A stretch of 64,000 nucleotides of DNA. Origin: a virus. The notes under the pieces were generated by a model. It made no database searches. It was not told where the DNA came from and worked only from the letters and a program-made list of their open reading frames with translations. The translations under genes were made by a program, and so were the position numbers. Each line of letters starts with the position of its first letter. Within the stretch, counting starts at the first letter, position 1. Below, piece by piece: positions 11,007 through 46,393 of this stretch. The DNA lies in the IMG/VR virus record IMGVR_UViG_3300048922_000467, positions 1-64,000 of that record. One strand, written 5' to 3'.

Positions 11007-11212
11007 GCTTTCTTCTTATTATTATGTGGCTTTTATTCATTATACCGAACCCCGCAATCCCCGTGGGCCAAACCCAGTTTGACAACAAAGGAAATCGAGG
11101 TAGAACTATTTTCGCTGTATACCTCAATTGTCGACGCTGTCTACTGGTGCGGCATGGTAGGCGTCGGTAATATTGAAGATGTAAGCAATGCACAACAAGA
11201 GAGAGATTTGAA

Positions 11213-11446
11213 ATGAGCGATATCGAATATGACCCTGAGCTTATTGCAACGAAGGATGAGATCCGCGCAGCAGTCCGAGAAATTGCAATGAACACAGATG
11301 CAATTAATTTCATCGAATTCAGCTGGGAGGTAGAAGAATCGATTGGTTCTGACTTGATTATTCCTCCAGAAATGGACTGGATCGTCGAAGAGGCCATTCA
11401 GGATTATAGCTCACTGGCTCTGGACGAGGAGAACGGCAATGTTTGA
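11213..11446 (+). CDS. Small acidic hypothetical protein (moron)
   Basis: 77 aa, very D/E-rich; leader GCACAACAAGAGAGAGA; opposite strand to tail genes. Confidence 0.7.
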   Translation: MSDIEYDPELIATKDEIRAAVREIAMNTDAINFIEFSWEVEESIGSDLIIPPEMDWIVEEAIQDYSSLALDEENGNV

Positions 11447-24100: not shown

Positions 24101-24520
24101 ATGCTCACTCAACTCCCACATCTGTCGCTCAGTCAAATCCCGCTCCCCCTGCAGCTCTGCAAGCTCAAGGCCGGCTTTCCATCACCAGCCCTGGACTACG
24201 TCGAAGACAGACTGACGCTGAATGACGTGGTTAAGCTCGATCCCAGGTACTGCTATCTATGCCAAATTGATGGCGATTCCATGATCGACTACGGCATCCA
24301 GCCCGGAGATGTAGCAGTGATCAGCCGCAACGAGCCAGCCAGGCCTGGGAAGATTGTGGTCATCAGCATCGACGGTCAGAACACGCTTAAGCTGCTGTCT
24401 GAAGATGACCAGGGCCCGGTGCTCCTCGCCGGCAACAGCGCTTACAAGCCGATTCGGCCAGGTGACGGTGAGGAGTGGGTATTTCATGGGGTGCTGATCG
24501 CATGCACGCGCCTGTTCTGA
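24101..24520 (+). CDS. umuD: Pol V accessory subunit UmuD/RulA (S24 peptidase)
   Basis: AGFPSPA.DY, GDSM, K catalytic motifs. Confidence 0.92.
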   Translation: MLTQLPHLSLSQIPLPLQLCKLKAGFPSPALDYVEDRLTLNDVVKLDPRYCYLCQIDGDSMIDYGIQPGDVAVISRNEPARPGKIVVISIDGQNTLKLLSEDDQGPVLLAGNSAYKPIRPGDGEEWVFHGVLIACTRLF

Positions 24521-25812
24521 AGCCAGAATGGCGTCTGAGCGCAAATCAAAAGCGTGTGTACGCCTTGGTCGACTGCAATTCATTCTACGCAAGCTGTGAG
24601 CGGCACCCCCTTTGGCGCCCTGATCTTGCTGGGCTGCCGATAGTGGTGCTGTCGAACAACGATGGTTGCGTGATTGCTCGCTCCAAGGAAGCTAAGACCT
24701 TGGGGTACAAGATGGGTGACCCGTACTTCAAGATCCGCGACCAACTCGCCAACCAGGGCGTCCACGTATTCAGTTCGAACTACACGCTGTATGACGATCT
24801 CAGTAGCCGCGTGATGCTCACCCTGGCCGACTTCGCGAGCGAGCTGGAGGTGTATTCGATTGACGAAATGTTCCTCGATCTGACGGGCATGCGGGGCTAT
24901 CAGGTGATGGCCGAAGAGATGAAGGAGCGCGTGTTTCGATGGACTGGAATTCCCGTTGGCGTTGGGATCTCTACGACCAAGACCCTGGCGAAGCTCTCAA
25001 ACTGGGCTGCGAAAAACTGGAGAGGCCTTCCTGGTGTTGCAGTAGTACTTGACGATCAGCGGCACGAGCTGTTGCTCAAGCGTGCACCAATTGGGGAGGT
25101 TTGGGGGATCGGGCGTCGCTGGGCTGAGAAGCTGGAAGCCAAGGGCATCGTCACAGCCTGGCACTTGGCATGCGCGGACAACGAGGCTGTCGGTAGAGAG
25201 TTCAACGTCGTACTACAGCGGACTGCTCTAGAGCTCCGAGGCATCCCTTGCAATGATCTGGAGCTCCAGGCTCCGAAGAAAAAGCAAATCATCAGCTCAC
25301 GTGCGTTTGGAAGCCGGCAACAGGGGTGGAAACCAATTGAGCAGTCGATTGCCAGCTACGTTGCCCGCGCAGCTGAGAAACTCAGAGCTCAGGGGTCGGT
25401 TTGTCGGAAGATTGATGTTGGTCTCATTGTGAGGAAAGCCACGTCGGAGAGCTTCAGTGATGCGTACTCTTCAGCGACAGCCAGACTTCAGCAGCACACC
25501 GACGACACTCTCACGCTTCAAGGGGCGGCTGTTTCTTTGGCTAAGATAATCTTCGACGACAATGCAGTTTATGCAAAGTCCTCCGTGGCATTGAGCGAGA
25601 TCTGCCAGCCAGAAGACCTCACTACGGACATGTTCGCTGCTGCCAGCTCACAAAGCCCCAGAGCTAAGGTTCTCGATCAGATCAATGCCAAATTTGGCAA
25701 AGGCGCTCTGCGCTCAGCTACGACCATTGGCGACATGCAGTGGAGCATGCAACGTGGGCACCTGAGCCCTTACTACACTACGCGCCTGTCCGACCTGCCG
25801 AAGCTTCGGTAA
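24502..25812 (+). CDS. umuC: Y-family DNA polymerase V UmuC/RulB
   Basis: ALVDCNSFYASCE, VLSNNDGCVIARS, YSIDE, W.M.R..LSP.YTT. Confidence 0.95.
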   Translation: MHAPVLKPEWRLSANQKRVYALVDCNSFYASCERHPLWRPDLAGLPIVVLSNNDGCVIARSKEAKTLGYKMGDPYFKIRDQLANQGVHVFSSNYTLYDDLSSRVMLTLADFASELEVYSIDEMFLDLTGMRGYQVMAEEMKERVFRWTGIPVGVGISTTKTLAKLSNWAAKNWRGLPGVAVVLDDQRHELLLKRAPIGEVWGIGRRWAEKLEAKGIVTAWHLACADNEAVGREFNVVLQRTALELRGIPCNDLELQAPKKKQIISSRAFGSRQQGWKPIEQSIASYVARAAEKLRAQGSVCRKIDVGLIVRKATSESFSDAYSSATARLQQHTDDTLTLQGAAVSLAKIIFDDNAVYAKSSVALSEICQPEDLTTDMFAAASSQSPRAKVLDQINAKFGKGALRSATTIGDMQWSMQRGHLSPYYTTRLSDLPKLR

Positions 25813-27694: not shown

Positions 27695-27791
27695 GACCAG
27701 CTCTCAATATCATGGCAGTTATTGACAGATTGGCAATGGAGGGTAGGAATGTCAAGGGCCCAGCGGGGTGCCAGGCCATGGGGTGTGGGGG

Positions 27792-28067: not shown

Positions 28068-28137
28068 GAAGCGCTCTCTTATTGTTATGCCCTTGCATAC
28101 TGTCACTATGCAGGTGGAGCAAAAGAGAGCGCAACAC

Positions 28138-28838: not shown

Positions 28839-29219
28839 TTACGCCTGCAGCCAGCTTTCGACTTCCTGAGCCCCATGCTCCAATTTCCAGGCCTTCAAGG
28901 TGCTGTGATTACCGCCTTTCGTTTCGACGACTTCGTTTGTGTGCGGGTTCACATAGCGTTTAACTGCACGAGGCGCACGCGGCCCCTTACGCCCATCAAC
29001 CTTGCCACCCGCTGCAACCACAGAAGCCCCAGCAGCCTTGGGATCGAGGATGGCAATAACGTTGCGCAGAGACATGCCGTACTCCGCCAGCAGCTTGCGC
29101 AGTTTGTCTTCAAATTCCAGCTCCCTCTGCAGGGCTTCGCTGCCTTTGAGAGCTTCCAGGGCCTGAAGCTGTTCGGCGATCTGGCGCTCTAGGGCTCTGT
29201 ATTCTGCGGCTTTTGACAT
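28839..29219 (-). CDS. MvaT/MvaU-family H-NS-like nucleoid protein
   Basis: MSK.AEYR..E, Y.NPHT.EVVETKGGNH..LK.WK. Confidence 0.92.
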   Translation of the reverse strand: MSKAAEYRALERQIAEQLQALEALKGSEALQRELEFEDKLRKLLAEYGMSLRNVIAILDPKAAGASVVAAGGKVDGRKGPRAPRAVKRYVNPHTNEVVETKGGNHSTLKAWKLEHGAQEVESWLQA

Positions 29220-29338
29220 TAGTGGTGCTCCGTTTTAGTAAATGCCATGAAATATACATAGGTTGTAGCCGCTGTCAAATTCAAGCCATGACTACATATT
29301 GGACGAGCCGAGAATAGATTCATTCGGGCATTGCCTTA

Positions 29339-29354
29339 CTGTATGGGCATACAG
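29339..29354 (+). promoter_or_regulatory. LexA (SOS) box
   Basis: ta-CTGTATGGGCATACAG-ta. Confidence 0.9.
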
Positions 29355-29398
29355 TATATTTAAGTCAGTAGCCAATAAAAACAACAAGAGAAAAAGAC

Positions 29399-29593
29399 AT
29401 GCAAGGCACGATCATTATCAAGAATGGCTTATTCAACAACGCCTTCGAAATTCGAGACTGCGAGATAACCCTTAGCGATACAGCGAGCGTCAGCGAAGAT
29501 TGCGATTCGAACAAGAAATATGCTGAATTGACATACCGAGGCGACTCATTTCTGCATAAGTGTGTTGAGGATGTGAAAGCGCGCTTCCAGTAG
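29399..29593 (+). CDS. SOS-controlled small hypothetical protein
   Basis: 64 aa after LexA box; terminator at about 29610-29635. Confidence 0.7.
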   Translation: MQGTIIIKNGLFNNAFEIRDCEITLSDTASVSEDCDSNKKYAELTYRGDSFLHKCVEDVKARFQ

Positions 29594-29674
29594 CCATCAG
29601 ATCACAGAGAGGCTCACCCGCGAGCCTTTTGTTTTCAAATCCACCTGCAGCACATAATAATAAGAGAGAAGACA

Positions 29675-30121
29675 GTGATCTACAGCATTCACAAGAACGC
29701 CAGCCTATTTCATATAGTCGTTAAAGGCCGAACGATGCTTCTGATGGAGCTTTTTATGGGCTCAGACCACCAACACAAACTTGGCAATGGTTATCGATTC
29801 ATGGTTGCTGCTAAGCGACTTTTGGGAGATGGCTGCCTGAAAACGATAGCCAGCAAAAGGGCTGAGGGCGGTGCTCTAGTGCCCTACAAGGATACGTATA
29901 AGTACGTGGGCTCAGGAGTCTATGAGTTTTACAACGAAGTTAATGAAGAGCTCGTCAGGGCCTTTTTTGACGATAGGATTGGCATGGATGACCTGCGTTG
30001 CATCAAAGGGGACTACTTAGCCGCCCACATCGTTAAGCAAATTGACAGCCAAATGCCTGGCTACAGGGAAAAGTACGCCATGCGAATGTCGAGAGGAGCC
30101 TTGGGCTGGGTTTTCGAATGA
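29675..30121 (+). CDS. Hypothetical protein
   Basis: 148 aa; leader GCAGCACATAATAATAAGAGAGA; terminator at 30126-30146. Confidence 0.7.
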   Translation: MIYSIHKNASLFHIVVKGRTMLLMELFMGSDHQHKLGNGYRFMVAAKRLLGDGCLKTIASKRAEGGALVPYKDTYKYVGSGVYEFYNEVNEELVRAFFDDRIGMDDLRCIKGDYLAAHIVKQIDSQMPGYREKYAMRMSRGALGWVFE

Positions 30122-34563: not shown

Positions 34564-36081
34564 TTAACCCATTATCCCATGAGAGACAGTGGTAACTGGG
34601 CGCTTCCAGGTCAGGCGATATGCCAGCGCATCCCATGCATGATCGTCAGGCCCTTTGGCCACGGCATCGAGTTGATCGTCGTCACGCTGCAGGAATGGCA
34701 GGGTCTTAATCAGGAATTTCGCAGCAGGGAAAAAGTATATGTGAGGGTTGGATGGATCTTGTACCTTGGTGGCCTGCAGCCGCCCAAACATGAGCTGCGC
34801 AGAGGTCACACGGGAGCCGGGAGACTTGTCAGAGTTCACAAAGTCGATGCCCTCAGCCTTCAAGTCCTTGGCCACTGTGGGTGCATTTCCCTGATCGACC
34901 TTTGAGCCGTTGTAGATCTGATTATCTGCTGGCCCTGGAGCGACTTTTTTGTGAGCACTCAACACCCCAGTCAGCAGCTTTTCCTCTTTCTGTTTGAGGC
35001 GTGCCCCGATCTGGCGAGCAGAGAGGAATAACCCAGCATCCGGGCGTGCCTGCTTGCCAGTTTTGGGATCGATTTCGGTGCCGTAATCCTCGCCAATCAC
35101 AACCAGGCTGCCCTTCGGAGGACAGAATTCACGATTCCCCACTCGCACAGATTCCCCGTTACTCTCGGCAACCCAGAGACAACAAAAGGGGGTGCTCTGC
35201 CCAAAGTCGAAGCACCGATCGACCTTCCAGTCAACAGGGATCTGGAACGGATCAAGCAGCAGGTTTTGAGACCAAACGGGGCCAAACATCGCTCCTGTAT
35301 CGACGGCTTCCCAGTCGCCCTCCAACCATGCAGCCCTTTTGGCCGGATCGGTGAGCTGGGCCAGGTAGTTTCGGATGTAGCCGTCGTCGATGTAGTGATT
35401 CTGAAAGATGGTGCCGAACAGTGCTGTGCGTTGCCTGGTGCCATCGGCGTTGTATGTGATCTCGCCGGGCTTGCGCCCCTCAATGAAGCGCTCATACACC
35501 CAGGTTCTGCCGGCGCCCCAGGGGTTTGTGGTGCTGCGGACTTGCAGAGGTGGCGGGAGTGGTTGTGATGGGGTCGGTTGATACGCAGTACGGAGCGTCG
35601 ACATCATTGCTTCGTAGACTTCGATCGTTGACCACGTTGCCAATTCGTCAAAGCCGATGAAGGCGTACTGGTGACCGTGGAATTTGCCGTCGTACTCCCG
35701 GACGTGTTTGATGTGATTGAAGATCAGCACCTCGCCCGTGGGGAAAGTCCATGAGTGCTTGGTCTCGTTCCATACGGCACCAGGGAAGATCCTGGGAATG
35801 AGCATGCCTGCAGTCTTCACCAGGTCAGCAAGGTGCTTGAACTCTTTCCGCAAGATGATCCCGCGCCAGTACGCACCCCAACCTTTTCCCACGTGCTGCA
35901 GGAACGCCATGATGAGTGCATCAGATTTGCCATTGCCCCTAGAGCCATGGAACAGCACTTCCCGAGTGAGGTACTGAGGCTGACCCAGCACAAGGAACAT
36001 CGACTGCGACCCAGGCAAGGGCTTCCATATGATGTTCTGCACAGCACGTGCAAGCGGACGGATCGCCTGGAAAGCACTCAT
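34564..36081 (-). CDS. terL: Terminase large subunit
   Basis: GSRGNGKS Walker A, IGFDE, TTNP, DFG, DHA.DAL.Y; start reassigned to MSAFQ (ATGA overlap). Confidence 0.93.
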   Translation of the reverse strand: MSAFQAIRPLARAVQNIIWKPLPGSQSMFLVLGQPQYLTREVLFHGSRGNGKSDALIMAFLQHVGKGWGAYWRGIILRKEFKHLADLVKTAGMLIPRIFPGAVWNETKHSWTFPTGEVLIFNHIKHVREYDGKFHGHQYAFIGFDELATWSTIEVYEAMMSTLRTAYQPTPSQPLPPPLQVRSTTNPWGAGRTWVYERFIEGRKPGEITYNADGTRQRTALFGTIFQNHYIDDGYIRNYLAQLTDPAKRAAWLEGDWEAVDTGAMFGPVWSQNLLLDPFQIPVDWKVDRCFDFGQSTPFCCLWVAESNGESVRVGNREFCPPKGSLVVIGEDYGTEIDPKTGKQARPDAGLFLSARQIGARLKQKEEKLLTGVLSAHKKVAPGPADNQIYNGSKVDQGNAPTVAKDLKAEGIDFVNSDKSPGSRVTSAQLMFGRLQATKVQDPSNPHIYFFPAAKFLIKTLPFLQRDDDQLDAVAKGPDDHAWDALAYRLTWKRPVTTVSHGIMG

Positions 36082-38283: not shown

Positions 38284-38445
38284 AATGCACTCTCTTATTC
38301 TTATTATGTGCTGCTATGATCTTATTATCGTCAATGAGCAAAACATGACGCAACACCTGGTCGCGCCTTTTATTCAATTATCTTAATTCTTTCTTATGCC
38401 GGACAACTTGCTGTGAGTTAGGGGCATCCTTGCCTCCGCAATCCC

Positions 38446-40635
38446 TTAAAGCCCGGTATACCCCTGCATCTGCTCAAGCGACTTCGGATCGATCACATAG
38501 TAATAGCCAGACTTACCGCCGTCCTTCCGCTTTGTTTTCAAACCATGCAGTGACATGATTTCGGAGATTGCCCCTTGTTTGCTTCGGTCAGAGACTGAAC
38601 CTGTGTTCTTGGGCATTTTGAATCCAGCCAGGATTGCTTCGTGCCTGACCGCATTGATTCGATCGTAGAGAGCTACTGAGTCGGCTGGAGTCCAGTTGTC
38701 GTTGAGGAGGCCATTGTGCAACTCCTGGACGAGCTTTTCGAAGGTGGTTGATGGCTCGACGAATAGCTTGCGATAGTTGTCCAGCTTCACCTGCCCGACG
38801 CCTTCACCCCAAAACTGTGCGTCGTGGAAAGTCAGCTCCTTTCGCTTCAGGCCTTGCTGAGCCTGGTATCGGATTGCGGCAAAGTGTTCAGCTTCGCTGC
38901 TGGAGCCGATCTTCTGTGTGCGCTTGGCCTGGGCTTCAGTTGCAGCGGTAGCGTTCAGAAGGGTCAGCGCGGTGTCCTTCTTCACTGCTCTGCGACCGGC
39001 GCTGTTCGCTTTGAAGCCCTCAATGCCAAGGTCGTTATCGCTCGGGATCATTTCCAGCTTGAATCCCTGGCGTTTCAGCTCATACGGCAGGGTTAGCTGG
39101 ATGTTGTCCCGGAGCCAGCCGGTGCGCTTCATGTGATCCTTCCGAGCACCATCGAAGGCGGACTTGGCTGAGGCCTCGAACTCGACGTCAGCAATCTCCT
39201 CGCGCTTGTTTTGCGGGTTGCGAAGGCCGATCACGAACTCATTCGCAGTGCGGTCACGGCGCATCATCTGGATTGCGGAGCGGGGAGTCACAGAGCCCTC
39301 AAACAAGCCGTAATGCGCCTGGAAGTGACCGCTGGTGATGCTCAGGGCCGAGGTTATTGCAGGTGAGTAAATCACTACCTGGTGGGCCGTGGTATTGGGA
39401 TTGCTGATGAAGGCTGCTTGGGCTGGCCAACCTGCGGATTTGCTGGTGATGACCAATGGGGCGATGCCAGCCTTTTCCAGGACTTTGCCCAGGGCCTCGG
39501 CGTCCCTGGCGATGTCGATTGCGATCAGGGTGTTCTGGCCTGCATGGGCTGCAGAGAGGGCCATGGCACGCACCTGGTCGAGAGCGCCTACTTTGCAGTT
39601 GACGTCAGTGTGGGCCTGATCGATCTCGAAGCAGTGAATGAATTCCTTGCCTTTTTTGATCAAGGCGAGGCATTCGTCGTTGACGTCAGCGTCCGCGAAG
39701 ACAACTGATTTCGCGTTGTGTACGACCTGCTTGAGGGTGTTCCAGACGACTTCGCGCTGCTGGACAGACCCTTCAAACACGTGATCGAGCACCTGAGCGG
39801 CCTCATCAATCACCACCAGATCAACGGCTTTGATGAAGTCGTCAAATTTCGCGCTGATGAGTGAGTTGACAACCACCTTGAGTCCACGGGTTTTCTGCAT
39901 CTGGCCTGGCTGTACGTCTTCGTAGTCAACGAGACCTGGGATGTCGATGCCCTTGACGATCGAGCGGCGATGGGAAATCACGAGAACCTTCTTGCCGGCG
40001 TCCAGGAAGTCGGAGATGCAAGGGTTGATGACGAGGGAGCTTTTACCCCACCCAGTCGGGCATTTGATCAGTGCGCGACGGTCGCAACGAAGGAGAACCG
40101 AGCGGAGCCAGGACGTGGAAACTGGCTTATGGACTACAGGGAAGTCATGGCTATCGCTTTTTGAATCGAAGAACGCCTGAACGCGAAGTGTTTTATCGGC
40201 GATGGCCATTGCGCATTCAGTCTCACCTTTTCCAGACACCAAGGCCAGGCGCTGAGCGGCGACTGCTTTGTTTCCGGCAATATATGTATCCCTAGCCAAT
40301 TCGTAAGCTGCTTTACTGAAATTGCCTTCAGTCATCTCGTTTTTGAGCACGAGCAGCGCAACGTCAGACTTGTTCAGTTGATAGACGTTATCTGTGATTT
40401 TCCCAGAGAGGGGATCGTAAAGGCCTGACGCGGTTTTAAATGCTGCTTCAACTGCTTTGCTTGCAGAGTTGGAGATGCTCACCAGTCTTTTAAGGCTTGG
40501 ATATTCGCTCTTAATGTACTGCGTGGAATCTGTGAGGTCATCAGCTGCAACGGTTTGGAAGCCATTGACAGGAAAATCCATGCCGATAATGACCGTATTG
40601 CCAGCGCCAGTGATGTTTTGTTCGACCTGATGCAT
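38446..40635 (-). CDS. SF2 helicase / origin-binding replication protein (CyRepA1/UL9-like)
   Basis: PTGWGKS, ISHRRS, VIDE..Q, YSP......SI, QM..R.R motifs; start MHQV. Confidence 0.75.
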   Translation of the reverse strand: MHQVEQNITGAGNTVIIGMDFPVNGFQTVAADDLTDSTQYIKSEYPSLKRLVSISNSASKAVEAAFKTASGLYDPLSGKITDNVYQLNKSDVALLVLKNEMTEGNFSKAAYELARDTYIAGNKAVAAQRLALVSGKGETECAMAIADKTLRVQAFFDSKSDSHDFPVVHKPVSTSWLRSVLLRCDRRALIKCPTGWGKSSLVINPCISDFLDAGKKVLVISHRRSIVKGIDIPGLVDYEDVQPGQMQKTRGLKVVVNSLISAKFDDFIKAVDLVVIDEAAQVLDHVFEGSVQQREVVWNTLKQVVHNAKSVVFADADVNDECLALIKKGKEFIHCFEIDQAHTDVNCKVGALDQVRAMALSAAHAGQNTLIAIDIARDAEALGKVLEKAGIAPLVITSKSAGWPAQAAFISNPNTTAHQVVIYSPAITSALSITSGHFQAHYGLFEGSVTPRSAIQMMRRDRTANEFVIGLRNPQNKREEIADVEFEASAKSAFDGARKDHMKRTGWLRDNIQLTLPYELKRQGFKLEMIPSDNDLGIEGFKANSAGRRAVKKDTALTLLNATAATEAQAKRTQKIGSSSEAEHFAAIRYQAQQGLKRKELTFHDAQFWGEGVGQVKLDNYRKLFVEPSTTFEKLVQELHNGLLNDNWTPADSVALYDRINAVRHEAILAGFKMPKNTGSVSDRSKQGAISEIMSLHGLKTKRKDGGKSGYYYVIDPKSLEQMQGYTGL

Positions 40636-40652
40636 TTCAATTTCTCTCTGTA

Positions 40653-41116
40653 TTGTTGTCGTGCTCTCTTGCACATTTATAGTGTTATCCATGAGCAAAA
40701 GACCATGCAACACCTTTTGGGGTTGACACTTGGGTATGTTGAGGTATGCAAGTAACGCTGGGTTGATTGGGGGCTATTGAGGTAACGCCCGGTTGATTTC
40801 GGTTGCGCGAGAATGCTGTTCGAGAGCAGGGCGTAACGCAGCGTTGTGATTTTAGTTTTTCTTAACCAAGAGACTTGACCTGCCTACTGGCTCGGGTTTT
40901 CATAAACTCATCACAAAGCATCTGCACCCTCAACCGCCCCTTTCTTTTATAAAAGGAGAGACCCGTTGCAGGCGAGGTAGTTTTCTTTGGTTAAGAGAAA
41001 CGGAAGTAGATTTCCTTTTGTATACCTCGACTCCAAAAATTGACAAGCGAAAAAGGTGTTGCGCAGGCTTTTACTCATATTCAACACTATAAATGTGCAA
41101 GAGAGCACGACAACAA
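40653..41116. repeat. Putative origin region: 34-bp perfect inverted repeat (40653-40686 / 41083-41116), iteron-like repeats, IR element copy 2 (40855-41001)
   Basis: AACACTATAAATGTGCAAGAGAGCACGACAACAA on both strands; GTAACGCnnGGTTGATT at 40752 and 40782, degenerate copy at 40833. Confidence 0.8.
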
Positions 41117-41133
41117 GAAGAGAGAGCATCACA

Positions 41134-42414
41134 ATGAAATTCGGCATTCAGTACTCAGCAGCTACTCGACAAGTGAAGAACTGTCAGGCGGCAAGTTTCA
41201 GAGAGTTTTACGATAACGTCTTGCAAGCCGAGAGCGTTGTCGAAGAGAAAAGCGGTCGCACTTTTACGCCCGCGATCTTCAGACATCCTGAGCGATTGAT
41301 CGAACACACGATGGAGCTATCGATGATCGTGTTGGACGTAGATCAGAAGCCCCATGACGACATTATCACCCTGGAAGAGATGGAAGACGCCCTGATCGAC
41401 ATGAACTTCGAGCACTGCATTTATACATCACACAGCAACACTGTCGACTGCCCGCGCTTCCGCGTTGTAATGCCCCTAGACACCCCAATACAACCCGAGG
41501 CATTGCCGGCAGTAGCAGCTGCGGTTATCGAATGCCTAGACGGATTCTTCGATGGCCGACTGATCAAGGTTCTCGATCGCTGCTGGCAAGAAGTATCCCG
41601 CTGCTACTTCACTTTTATGTCACACCCCGATCGTCGAAGCGCAGCCATGAGCTTTTATAACCCCGGCAAGCCGCTGTGCTCCCTGGATCTAAAACTCGCT
41701 CAAAGCAGCTATGGCCTCGACGTCGAATCCTCTACCCCCGGCAAGCCCCGCAAGCCAGGCACCGCTGTAGGCGCAGCAGGCCGTAGCTTCGAGCTCAATC
41801 GCATCCTGGGTGGCCTGTTCCGCTCAGCCTGCGAAGATCAGATTGTCCAAAAAATCCTGGAGGTCGACCAGGAACAGAATCCAGGCAGTGAATACTTCCG
41901 GGATCAAAGCTACGCCCGTCACAAACCGCGCCCTGGCGAAACCAAAGACGCAGCAGCCCTGCGCGCCTGCAAAGCCTGGGTCAGATCCCACTTGAACTGG
42001 CTGCGCCGAAAAGCCAAGGGCATCGACACCACGGTCGTGAACCGAAAGGCTCAGTCCAAAGAGCCAATGCCTACCCACGAAGCCATGATCCGCTTGAAAG
42101 ACTTTAAGCCCGGCAAGACCAAGGCAGGCGGCGAAACAGCCCTGGCCGAATTCGAAATCGTGTCTGGTGAGCACGCTGGCCGTCACGTCTGGCACCGGTT
42201 TTACGGCCAGGGTAACCACCCAACAGCGATCAAGATCTCCAACGAAATGATCGAAAAATTCAAGACCGCCGCCAGTCTTCCAACAGCCAGCTTCGACGAT
42301 GCTTTGAAAGCAAAAGGCGTGATCGTCCACGCCCGGATCAAGCTAAAGGCAGGGACTGGGGGATTCCCTGATCAAAACGAAATCGGGACGTTCTTCACTC
42401 AACCTGTGTCGTGA
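41134..42414 (+). CDS. AEP primase-polymerase fused to DUF669-like ssDNA-binding domain
   Basis: LDVD, YTSHS, PRFRVVMPL; C-terminal FEIVSGEHAGR.VW...NEI. Confidence 0.75.
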   Translation: MKFGIQYSAATRQVKNCQAASFREFYDNVLQAESVVEEKSGRTFTPAIFRHPERLIEHTMELSMIVLDVDQKPHDDIITLEEMEDALIDMNFEHCIYTSHSNTVDCPRFRVVMPLDTPIQPEALPAVAAAVIECLDGFFDGRLIKVLDRCWQEVSRCYFTFMSHPDRRSAAMSFYNPGKPLCSLDLKLAQSSYGLDVESSTPGKPRKPGTAVGAAGRSFELNRILGGLFRSACEDQIVQKILEVDQEQNPGSEYFRDQSYARHKPRPGETKDAAALRACKAWVRSHLNWLRRKAKGIDTTVVNRKAQSKEPMPTHEAMIRLKDFKPGKTKAGGETALAEFEIVSGEHAGRHVWHRFYGQGNHPTAIKISNEMIEKFKTAASLPTASFDDALKAKGVIVHARIKLKAGTGGFPDQNEIGTFFTQPVS

Positions 42415-43182: not shown

Positions 43183-43399
43183 ATCATCAAGAAACTCAAG
43201 AGCCTCTACCCAGGGGCTTTTTCACGCCCTCACGGATTGACAGCCAACTACTTTAAGTTATACAGCAGATCACACTATTGCTTTCAAAATGTCGCTTTGA
43301 CAACCAACTAATCTTAGGTATACGCCTTGACAATCTGTTGTGCGCACAATGACTCAATGCCATAATCTAACCATAACAACAAGAAAAAGGAACTCGCCA

Positions 43400-43690
43400 A
43401 TGAATTATTTCACAGAACATCTTTCGAACATGTCTATAGAGCGGAAACTTGCACGGATTAAGAGCTATCTGAACTTCCTGCAGCTCCCAGGCATCGACCA
43501 GACATTCCTGGATTTGCTATTAATGTCCAGAGAGCTTCATCAGTCTTCGATGTGCCGTGGAGACACAAGTATCATTGACGTTGCGGACTCAATAGATGAG
43601 TTTGTACGCAAGACGCTAGATGAAGCTTGCGAACACATTGACCGACCATACCACGCAAAGACTTATGAGAACGAATCTACTGGCATGTAA
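43400..43690 (+). CDS. Hypothetical protein
   Basis: Leader CATAACAACAAGAAAAAGGAA then ATG. Confidence 0.6.
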   Translation: MNYFTEHLSNMSIERKLARIKSYLNFLQLPGIDQTFLDLLLMSRELHQSSMCRGDTSIIDVADSIDEFVRKTLDEACEHIDRPYHAKTYENESTGM

Positions 43691-43771
43691 ACCCACCAAA
43701 CTTTGCACTCAAAAAACCCAGCAGCTTTTGATTTATCCCCACATACAGCACTGTGGCAGTGGTAATATATA

Positions 43772-43873
43772 GATGTAGGCAGTTCCTCTCTCTTACTGCC
43801 TATGCCTTTATTGTTGTGTGCTGCACCCAATCCCTGGCCGGGCCTCTCTCTCTCTCCTGGCCGGGGCTTTTTT
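43772..43873 (+). ncRNA. Candidate two-hairpin antisense sRNA with CU-rich loops
   Basis: TGnTAATAT extended -10; stems 43775-43803 and 43832-43866; U6 tail; complementary to several phage leaders. Confidence 0.7.
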
Positions 43874-44098
43874 ATGTTGCCAATTTGTCAATTTCGTTAC
43901 CATTCGTCAGGAAAGCAATGTGAGAAAGTTGGGGCAGTGTCAGACAACAGCCGGAATTGCTGGGGTTGCTGGGAGTTGTTGTCTGATACTGGGTGTTAGT
44001 ACACTTAGTTGATTATTTCCCGACGGTTTACAGGGATATTGATTGCTCTTAGCCTTGTTCATGTCGGTTGACGACACAACAGAAAAGAGAGCGAAACG

Positions 44099-44320
44099 AT
44101 GGGGATGTACGAGCGGATTCCGAATGACCTTATTACTTCAAGCCAGGCGGCTGAGGTGCTGGGGGTGAGCATCAACACATTGAAGGTCTGGCGCTCCAGA
44201 AACCCCAACTTGGGTTACTACAGGGGTCACAACCGCGAGATTCGTTACTCGCTGAAAGAATGCCAGCAGTACTACCGCCGTTCGTTCCAGCGCGTTGTGC
44301 CTGGGTCTGGCGCGCAATGA
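44099..44320 (+). CDS. Excisionase-like HTH protein
   Basis: QAAEVLGVSINTL..WR...IRY. Confidence 0.8.
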   Translation: MGMYERIPNDLITSSQAAEVLGVSINTLKVWRSRNPNLGYYRGHNREIRYSLKECQQYYRRSFQRVVPGSGAQ

Positions 44321-44389
44321 AGACGCCCTCGGCTCGACAATTTATTATCAAAAATGATAGTTTTCTGTGGAGTCAGTCGAGGGTGAGTT

Positions 44390-44923
44390 ATGAATCGAAA
44401 GCTGCTGCTGGAATCGTGCAGAACGCTGGCAGCTGCCGGGGTGTGGTGCATCCCTGAATCGACTCTGATCGGGTTTGCGGGGTATCCAGACAAAGCTTAC
44501 TTCCGCGTTGCCATGGCCAGGCATTTTAGAGCCGGCATCATCGAGAAAATCGCCCCCAAGCTTTACGCCAATCCCTTCCTGCGCCCACCTGCGGCTGGGC
44601 TGTTTCGCTTAACCAATTTTCTAAGGCCATTGGACAGCTTTTATCTGAGCTGTGAATCGGTGCTCAGTGAGCATGGTTGGATCAGCCAGCTGCCTTTCTG
44701 CCTGACCTTCGTTACTACTGGCCGAAGCTATCGATACAGCACGTTGCTGGGTGACATCGACTTCGTGCACACCGAAGAAGACCCCGCAACCTGGTTAGGC
44801 CATCTGCAGCGAAATGAAGACCGTCAGGTATGGGAGGCGTCCCCTGAGAGAGCCCTGGCCGACCTGCAGCGCTACAAGCGCAACCTTGATCTCGTCCTGC
44901 CCGAATCCGAGCGCCCGCAATAG
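44390..44923 (+). CDS. AbiEi-like type IV antitoxin / transcriptional regulator
   Basis: Y.S.ES.L...G.ISQ, T..TT, A.PERAL.D motifs. Confidence 0.75.
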   Translation: MNRKLLLESCRTLAAAGVWCIPESTLIGFAGYPDKAYFRVAMARHFRAGIIEKIAPKLYANPFLRPPAAGLFRLTNFLRPLDSFYLSCESVLSEHGWISQLPFCLTFVTTGRSYRYSTLLGDIDFVHTEEDPATWLGHLQRNEDRQVWEASPERALADLQRYKRNLDLVLPESERPQ

Positions 44924-45961: not shown

Positions 45962-46393
45962 CCCCTCCAGCTCCAGCCCCCAGTCAGCTTTGTTCCCGAA
46001 CACCTCGCTGGACGGCTCAAGCCGGGGGCAGCGTTGGTCGCGGCTAGAGCCAGATCGACAGAATGTACAAGATGATCAGCAGGTTGAACCCGTTGCGACA
46101 CAGATTTTTAATCGTAGTCATTTCTCGCCCCTGCCGACATATTATGGCAGTTATTAACTCACAGGTTCAGATCTAAATCAAGCTCAATGCCCCAGTTTTG
46201 CTGGGCATTTCACGTATGTCTCTCGTACCTACCTGCATTAGTACACTAAGTTTACTTTCAGTATATTGCCAATTTGTCAATTGTTTTCTCTGATAATTCC
46301 GACGAACGGCATTGCCAAGATCTCGATTTGCCAACATATTGATGTCAGACGGGCTGCGCAGTGTCGCCCGATTTGAAGACTGGGCAGAGTGAG

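Follow-up and report, generated by a model that had tools for sequence, protein, structure and literature searches.

A probable two-hairpin small RNA gene in a Pseudomonas prophage, complementary to a leader cassette shared by dispersed transcription units

Could one small RNA of a temperate phage govern several of the phage's own operons at once? The question is raised by positions 43760-43873 of the stretch of DNA analysed here (the window), 64,000 nucleotides that make up the first 64 kb of the 86,453-base provirus record IMGVR_UViG_3300048922_000467. An original prediction, made from the letters alone, had placed there an RNA-based immunity system, i.e., a small RNA (sRNA) antisense to a leader motif found ahead of many prophage genes. 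Our reading is that the locus is probably a plus-strand, non-coding sRNA gene of ca. 100 nt with two hairpins, previously undescribed. We consider it rather likely that the RNA is made as a discrete transcript, and we are evenly divided on whether it acts in trans by pairing on the phage's own operon leaders.

The RNA gene and its conservation

The extended -10 box, both hairpins and their loops, the linker between them and the U6 tail all lie where the original prediction had drawn them (Table 1). The plus strand folds to exactly two hairpins, with -36.6 kcal/mol and a z score of -3.62 (0 of 200 shuffles were as good), versus a weaker fold of -29.7 kcal/mol (z -2.56) for the minus strand. The linker holds the putative seed (UAUUGUUG) and a small palindrome (GTGCTGCAC), and its 3' half (GUGUGCUGCA) is variable among relatives.

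Protein-anchored and pattern searches provided 11 further loci (G001-G009, G020 and two metagenome contigs), which together with the window make up a conservation set of 12 sequences; L059 was omitted as a probable second copy of G007. The motif TGnTAATAT of the -10 box is kept in all 12, at 6-7 nt ahead of hairpin 1 (5 nt in L027). Across the alignment 96.3% of 240 stem cells are paired, with 91.7% in hairpin 1, where substitutions yield G-U, and 100% of 132 in hairpin 2. Ten stem pairs vary on one side only, always keeping a standard pair, and a single one, in hairpin 2 of L058, changes on both sides (G-C to A-U). One double change is also yielded by 41 of 500 column shuffles and, given the small diversity, the covariation support for the stems appears modest. 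A clearer indication of strand comes from the 48 of 240 stem cells that are G-U, i.e., A-C mismatches on the opposite strand, and the selected fold would therefore be that of the plus strand. On account of this pattern and of the weaker fold, a minus-strand RNA was rejected. A coding reading was rejected as well: indels of 1, 2 and 4 nt among the relatives interrupt the open reading frames (ORFs) 43753-43923, 43802-43999 and 43818-44012, and therefore no reading frame is conserved at the locus.

The loops are what distinguishes the element from its surroundings. Only one of the 11 positions of the hairpin 1 loop varies and the loop of hairpin 2 differs in length by 4 nt among relatives, and both are nearly invariant CU repeats, although terminator loops are free to vary. 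Judging from the alignment, it is these loops, and not conservation alone, that single out the RNA within its block. We compared the identity of the non-coding sequence with that of the four-fold degenerate sites of neighbouring genes. The non-coding block 43689-44098 has 84-96% identity to the window in 9 of 10 relatives (72-90% in G009) and the stretch 3' of the terminator 90-96% in 9 of 10, versus 36-69% at the four-fold sites of the helix-turn-helix (HTH) gene and 50-80% at those of orf177. These values point to purifying selection on the entire non-coding block.

The leader cassette and its complementarity to the RNA

Eight transcription-unit leaders have a common layout, in which a -10-like box is followed within a few bases by GCAC, a CA-rich AAYAAYAA tract, AAGAGAG or a one-base variant of it and, 6-13 nt further on, the start codon. 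AAGAGAG precedes the starts at 11213, 28067 (-), 29675, 38283 (-), 41134 and 44099, and AGAGAGA precedes that at 40635 (-). By our own reading, AAGAGAG matches the usual anti-Shine-Dalgarno poorly. GGAG-type Shine-Dalgarno sequences are found at few phage start regions, and ca. 12 late-gene starts are A-rich. AAGAGAG is not enriched when simply counted over the window (14 copies, with 10.1 expected and 15 of 100 shuffles reaching 14); only its position at gene starts is. Relatives keep these leaders, and do so even if another gene follows the 29675 leader.

The linker pairings listed in the original prediction were all correct. With 29646-29663 the linker pairs over 18 nt including 2 G-U (19 nt with 3 G-U when 29664 is included), and with 38301-38314 (-) over 14 nt. 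The helicase leader (40664-40651, -) and the primase leader (41105-41116) are matched through GCAC-G-ACAACAA, with one bulged G, and shorter pairings are found at 28090-28078 (-; 13 nt), 11189-11198 (10 nt) and 44074-44082 (9 nt). The comparison with start regions against shuffled controls that had been suggested alongside these pairings came out in their favour. We scored contiguous helices over the translation initiation regions (TIRs) of 59 starts, that is, 61 ORFs minus four (1+, 27768+, 31074+ and 43802+) plus two added by hand (28067- and 11213+), against 2000 shuffled linkers. The best score, 40, was reached by none of the 2000 shuffles, those at ranks 2 and 3 (31 and 27) by 1 and 0, and the score at rank 5 again by none. 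When the TIR set was ranked by energy only, the best energy was not unusual (6.7% of 300 shuffles were as good), while ranks 3-8 were. A ranking over the whole record with RNA.duplexfold was dominated by G+C-rich host DNA and hence discarded, and a G-U-tolerant listing of runs was too noisy with so G/U-rich a query.

The loops gave a signal of their own. At least 7 Watson-Crick pairs with loop 1 can be formed by 7 of the 59 TIRs, where random windows give 0.57 +/- 0.75 (maximum 3; ca. 12x), and with loop 2 by 4 of 59, against 0.29. This bears out the claim that the leaders carry AGAGAG complementary to the CU loops in the antiparallel order. Cofolding preserves both hairpins and pairs the linker to the leaders, with a ddG of -23.8 kcal/mol at 29675 and of -10.6 to -15.2 kcal/mol for six other leaders with loop-1 complementarity.

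A match of this kind might also arise at the level of DNA, if the GCAC sites at transcript starts were operators or promoter elements usable in either orientation and the linker copy a protein-binding site. The motif is indeed located at predicted +1 regions, the linker contains the small palindrome GTGCTGCAC, and in the GTGC-N6-GCAC that opens both replication transcripts the arms are kept among relatives and the middle is variable. However, the eight leader copies all have the same orientation relative to their own genes and the RNA gene copy alone is inverted, the complementarity continues through AAYAAYAA and AAGAGAG, far beyond GCAC, and the G-U pattern of the stems indicates selection on the plus-strand fold, so that we regard a DNA-level motif as very improbable.

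The A-rich part of the cassette raises a different question. The sequence AAnAAnAA occurs in 19 of the 59 TIRs, against 1.05 +/- 0.97 in random windows (ca. 18-fold), e.g., at 3218-, 7490-, 10296-, 11006-, 14111- and 17305-. It is given, in an excerpted part of PMC5113210, as the motif for the Hfq/Crc block of initiation in Pseudomonas putida, and the translation of the phage may be tied to host catabolite repression. One could go further and suppose that the RNA is directed to the host, its UUnUUnUU-like linker pairing with the AAnAAnAA of Hfq/Crc-controlled host mRNAs or of CrcZ/CrcY and re-tuning catabolite repression. The linker is the complement of this motif class, and the top Rfam match of the RNA is a weak likeness to ErsA (19.5 bits, E 0.08-0.19). 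Yet the exact 14-nt motif GCAGCACAYAAYAA has only three copies in the 5.5-Mb lysogen genome G009, all of them inside the prophage (the RNA gene and two leaders). With one mismatch allowed, few further copies of the target motif turn up elsewhere: G009 has 6 and G020 has 5, and the reversed control yields 1 and 3, respectively. The CU loops, moreover, match AAGAGAG, which is phage-specific. A host-directed role therefore seems to us quite improbable.

From the observed sequence, fold, strand, conservation and complementarity, with their statistics, we infer a mode of action that involves transcription, pairing in vivo, repression and possibly a part in lysogeny. The RNA would be transcribed from the extended -10 promoter, end at its own intrinsic terminator and act in trans on the operon leaders of the phage itself, as an anti-ribosome-binding-site regulator. 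The purine motif AAGAGAG at the ribosome-binding site (RBS) would be paired by the CU-repeat loop of hairpin 1, and perhaps by that of hairpin 2, and the CA-rich AAYAAYAA just upstream of the motif by the adjacent G/U-rich linker, G-U wobble allowing one linker to read both the C and the U variants of the leaders. The resulting duplex would lie over the landing site of the 30S subunit and would reduce translation and lower mRNA stability. Predicted as targets are the genes that come first in the helicase, primase, endonuclease, AlpA/Xis-like HTH and SOS-module units and in two small-ORF units. Hfq probably assists the RNA, since the latter ends in a U-tail and the leaders fit AAnAAnAA, the Hfq/Crc motif of Pseudomonas.

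Several other features of the leaders deserve mention. Within 29337-29360 a perfect SOS box (CTGT-N8-ACAG) overlaps a -10-like TATATT; from this box the order is the 64-aa ORF and a weak terminator (within 29399-29640) and then directly the 19-nt RNA-complementary site. The mirror-image promoters and leaders of helicase and primase form a 99-nt inverted repeat (40653-40751 / 41018-41116, 78% complementary), between whose arms there are three iteron-like direct repeats of GTAACGCnnnGTTG (40752-40846). The RNA gene and the 77-aa ORF share the block GGTAATAT-(2-3 nt)-AGATGTA(A/G)GCA(A/G)T (43761-43786 and 11166-11190, respectively), which suggests a common type of promoter and transcript start for the two. 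The ORF at 11213 is on the strand opposite to the surrounding tail genes.

Table 1. Coordinates in the window of the parts of the RNA gene and of the leaders complementary to it
Feature	Position	Strand	Remarks
Mosaic breakpoint	43689		Metagenomic contigs
Upstream promoter region with A-tract, conserved	43689..43759	+	84-94% identity in 9/10 relatives, 72% in G009
Spacer, the sole freely varying stretch of the promoter region	43748-43756	+	Alignment of relatives
Extended -10 box TGGTAATAT	43760-43768	+	Relatives: TGGTAATAT or TGATAATAT
Hairpin 1, 9-bp stem, arms GTAGGCAGT / ACTGCCTAT, loop TCCTCTCTCTT	43775-43803	+	
Anti-AAGAGAG loop sequence of hairpin 1, UCCUCUCUCUU		+	
Single-stranded G/U-rich linker region	43804..43831	+	Fold and alignment
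Linker TTATTGTTGTGTGCTGCA	43808-43825	+	
Hairpin 2, 11-bp G+C-rich stem, (CU)n loop CCTCTCTCTCTCT	43832-43866	+	Forms the terminator stem
U6 tail of the intrinsic terminator (T6)	43868-43873	+	At least 5 consecutive T after the stem in 12/12 sequences
Best predicted target, leader of the 148-aa ORF (29675, GTG start)	29646..29668	+	19 nt complementary to the linker, then AAGAGAG
Leader of the endonuclease I-like gene (38283-)	38290..38314	-	14 nt complementary to the linker, AAGAGAG
Leader of the helicase gene (40635-)	40643..40670	-	GUGC-AAGAGA-GCAC mini-hairpin, GCAC-G-ACAACAAUA, AGAGAGA
Leader of the primase-like gene (41134+)	41095..41124	+	Mirror copy of the helicase leader
Leader of the HTH_17 (AlpA/Xis-like) 73-aa gene (44099+)	44074..44091	+	ACACAACAG, then AAGAGAG
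Leader of the 91-aa ORF (28067-)	28074..28090	-	GCAUAACAAUAAGAGAG
Leader of the 77-aa ORF (11213+)	11189..11203	+	Promoter and start block (GGTAATAT..AGATGTAAGCA) like that of the RNA gene
Leader of the 64-aa ORF (29399+)	29376..29392	+	AAAAACAACAAGAGAAA, behind the CTGT-N8-ACAG SOS box 29340-29355

Rival readings and the setting of the locus

A number of observations weigh against an RNA that acts on its leaders in trans, or against a discrete transcript. A consensus scan listed no sigma-70 site at the RNA gene, which has no -35 hexamer, and it omitted hairpin 2, whose 13-nt loop is above the 8-nt limit of its terminator rule. None of the sequencing runs listed is recorded as RNA, and the contigs from four of them, probably DNA, are uninformative on transcription. 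The whole 410-nt intergenic block is conserved, most strongly 3' of the terminator, and because of this the constraint is not specific to the RNA. The TIR set comes from a crude ORF caller and was edited by hand, with three starts moved (40635, 41134 and 43400), and the loop 1 matches include the two hand-added, motif-bearing ORFs (28067- and 11213+), without which they are 5 of 57. A-rich TIRs are general in this phage and the complementarity to the shared motif could, for this reason, stem from an inverted copy of the leader cassette. The loop AAGAGA of the mini-hairpin in the helicase and primase leaders is not kept in the relatives.

Further points concern the linker. In 6 of the 12 relatives its 3' half is variable with no matching change in the leaders, and the metagenomic variants L057 and L058 are altered there as well. 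In G004 and G006 the changes abolish the long pairing with leaders that have themselves not changed. We compared how well each linker matches its own and foreign leaders, using the first BLAST match covering query 30-66 and leaving aside the pseudo-leader 28148+ (a 7-codon ORF) and the 29399 leader, and found no co-variation: the mean score was 22.21 with own and 22.04 with foreign linkers, the own linker being higher in 32 and lower in 26 of the 58 leader-genome pairs. The altered linker of G001 instead matches the leader of that genome's 91-aa ORF over 16 nt (CAUAACAACAAGAGAG), a new match that covers AAGAGAG. The conservation of loops and linker on which the original prediction depended is thus found for the loops and for the linker core UAUUGUU (kept in 10 of the 12), but not for the rest of the linker. 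Similarly, a conserved, structured plus-strand RNA complementary to a shared cassette is what remains of the proposed multi-target repressor, the long linker pairing not being conserved. In terms of the alignment, the 19-nt match of the window is lineage-specific and the conserved part is a short seed plus the CU loops, which is compatible with an sRNA but gives a weaker picture than the one originally drawn.

One rival to consider is a module that works mainly in cis. Hairpin 2 and its U6 would end the rightward replication operon, and they might also belong to the promoter-proximal part of a long, structured leader of the HTH operon, with read-through set by a protein; the short RNA would then be a by-product and the likeness to the leaders a relic of an inverted cassette. 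The element does have the primase operon on one side and the HTH gene on the other, all three on one strand. The block 3' of the terminator is the most conserved part, and a long conserved hairpin with a compensatory change is found in the HTH gene leader at 43935-43993 (where the window has G-T at one pair, most relatives have G-C and L027 has T-A). An operator-like palindrome at 43877-43891 is repeated at 46266-46280, and the missing co-variation of linker and leaders fits as well. On the other hand, a plain terminator needs neither an invariant CU-repeat loop, nor a second hairpin with a CU loop, nor a conserved TGnTAATAT, and no antiterminator pairing partner for the 5' arm of hairpin 2 was seen in the plus-strand fold. 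We see a cis module as unlikely, although deserving of some weight. The P4 CI RNA is itself derived from a leader. IsrK is leader-derived too, as an excerpt of PMC4825925 has it, and a cis origin would be compatible with trans action. After the hairpin 43935-43993 there is a small T-rich, terminator-like hairpin at 43988-44009.

Upstream of the RNA gene are the primase-like gene (41134-42414) and two ORFs with no known function, and downstream the 73-aa HTH_17 (AlpA/Xis-like) gene at 44099, further ORFs, an Xis-like gene and the integrase. The segment 43289-43689, which holds the ORF 43340-43690, is a variable cassette, from which relatives and metagenomic contigs diverge at 43289 to rejoin at 43689. 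G+C content is ca. 52% from base 1 to ca. 50,400, versus ca. 65% in the remainder of the record. As judged from its genes and relatives the host of the prophage is a Pseudomonas, because the element recurs in a Pseudomonas shirazensis genome (strain A_1.9.1, which carries the RNA element), one homologue of a neighbouring protein bears the name of P. cichorii, and the prophage encodes an MvaT-type silencer along with UmuDC. The silencer gene (PF22055, 76.5 bits) is located at 28839-29219 (-) and the UmuD/UmuC-like pair at 24101-25812 (+). A blastn search of 43300-44400 against the phage database gave no match, and protein searches with the 148-aa and 271-aa ORFs gave nothing usable. The product of the HTH gene has 8 homologous proteins, and tblastn of the helicase against the phage database retrieved distant RepA relatives only. 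The additional loci found by pattern scans of viral, genome and metagenome sequences were all close relatives, and a covariance model built from nine sequences matched in 2 of 151 Pseudomonas genomes. By these searches the RNA element is confined to one narrow lineage of temperate Pseudomonas phages.

What, then, of immunity? The original prediction had noted that the prophage of the window, prophage A, shows no CI-like HTH-S24 repressor and had proposed that the RNA silences replication and excision genes in the lysogen. In its strongest form the RNA would be the primary immunity repressor, lysogeny being maintained by RNA alone until SOS-induced transcripts carrying the 19-nt site titrate it and cause induction. 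The starting observation stands, as a six-frame search gave no HTH_3 match in prophage A and its sole Peptidase_S24 match is the UmuD-like gene 24161-24493. A 252-aa frame with HTH_3 and S24, of the CI/LexA repressor type, lies at 79631-80209 (+), in the high-G+C part of the record and outside the window. Moreover, both replication genes are among the predicted targets, and the best site follows closely on the weak terminator of a gene that has a perfect CTGT-N8-ACAG box. To conclude that there is immunity and no repressor was nevertheless an over-reading, because only two Pfam families (HTH_3 and Peptidase_S24) were covered, and no match was obtained for over ten ORFs close to the switch regions.

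There are also signs of regulation by proteins. The near-palindrome TTGCCAATTTGTCAA is present exactly at 43877-43891, directly 3' of the RNA terminator, and at 46266-46280, before the Xis-like gene, and with one mismatch each at 27722-27736 (-) and 35637-35651 (+); allowing up to 3 mismatches, the count is 7 where 1.87 are expected, and none of 100 shuffles reached 7. It looks like the operator of a DNA-binding regulator and, together with GTGC-N6-GCAC, suggests that protein regulators operate here. Besides, the phage has its own MvaT-like silencer, the genes behind the 19-nt site differ between relatives, and G004 and G006 retain the prophage although the long pairing is lost. On balance, a role of the RNA as immunity repressor is possible but unlikely. 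We judge no more favourably the full scheme that could be built on it, namely a tailed, integrating prophage that does without a CI-type protein and is silenced by one master RNA reading the AAYAAYAA-AAGAGAG 'barcode' of all early operons, with induction via an SOS-controlled transcript whose 19-nt decoy soaks up the RNA.

Comparison with known systems

P1 c4, P4 CI, N15 CA and P22 sar each guard one operon. The RNA described here appears, from its complementarity, to address a leader cassette found in seven or more dispersed transcription units, those of both replication genes among them. If this were true, a temperate phage would tag its early genes with a ribosome-binding signature of its own and have one RNA govern them jointly, and phage gene expression would be linked to the Hfq/Crc system of Pseudomonas. 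The system is compact and directly testable, with one RNA of 100 nt, short leaders and a lysogenic Pseudomonas strain in the public record.

A search of Rfam gave no family at gathering score in the window, and C4 was absent from the matches at E up to 10 in 43600-44110. ErsA / Pseudomon-1 (RF01719), another sRNA of Pseudomonas, resembles the present RNA in its single strand rich in G and U and in the C/U-rich loop of its terminator hairpin. Nevertheless, the RNA scored 19.5 bits against a gathering score of 50 (E 0.083-0.19), the aligned part is essentially the terminator, and membership in this family was rejected on the score. The RNA shares with class I Hfq-dependent sRNAs an intrinsic terminator with a U-tail, a U-rich single strand upstream of it (UUUAUUGUUGUGUG) and, by sequence match, A-rich AAnAAnAA near the pairing sites (the 19 of 59 TIRs given above, against 1.05 expected). 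In having this motif at their start sites the phage TIRs resemble Hfq/Crc-controlled host mRNAs, again by sequence match; the known antagonists CrcZ and CrcY carry AAnAAnAA itself and the present RNA carries its complement. As to the leaders, a motif that is specific to the phages and recurs immediately ahead of many start codons has reportedly been described in a study of the start-associated sequences (SAS) of Cluster K mycobacteriophages. We know of no complementary RNA described for it, whereas the leader motif here has a matching RNA gene.

In elements with no classical CI protein, the CI RNA of P4 and the CA RNA of N15 provide immunity and their target is a sequence repeated in phage transcripts. 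They cause premature transcription termination in one leader. The predicted target leaders of the present phage are, unlike that of P4 CI, 30-40 nt long and run into the start codons with no terminator between site and gene, and the sites cover the RBSs. In the Rfam search there was no likeness in sequence or structure to either RNA, and the resemblance is in the logic of immunity only. The RepA proteins of N15, VP882 and phiHAP-1 are distant kin of the helicase of this phage (27-35% identity over 37-39% of the query).

The c4 RNA of P1/P7 (immI; C4 in Rfam) offers a closer parallel, as a small phage RNA with loop-exposed complementary sequences around the RBS and several contact sites. It is cut by RNase P from the leader of the single operon under its control. 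The present RNA differs from it in having no match to the C4 covariance model, in its own promoter-like box and at least 7 dispersed predicted targets, and in a host that is Pseudomonas and not an enterobacterium. What both have in common are sequences exposed in loops and complementary to RBS sites (loop 1 with 7 and loop 2 with 4 of the 59 TIRs); those of c4 pair around the RBS and block the synthesis of a phage regulator, according to an excerpt of PMC12197685. The same excerpt describes P22 sar, which blocks translation of ant, its single target, and arises from the locus of that target, and a vibriophage RNA, VpdS of VP882, which is Hfq-bound, ca. 50 nt long, promotes replication and affects both phage and host mRNAs; the paper also has 38 uncharacterised phage sRNAs (PMC12197685). 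Both sar and VpdS are, like the present RNA, phage-encoded and pair with phage mRNAs, but neither is described in that excerpt as complementary to a leader cassette of several operons (PMC12197685). Judged from listings and the openings of abstracts, we found no paper on such an RNA in a Pseudomonas prophage. By analogy, we would place the RNA as a new form of the antisense-RNA control already known in temperate phages, with a working principle that would be closest to those of P1/P7 c4 and P22 sar.

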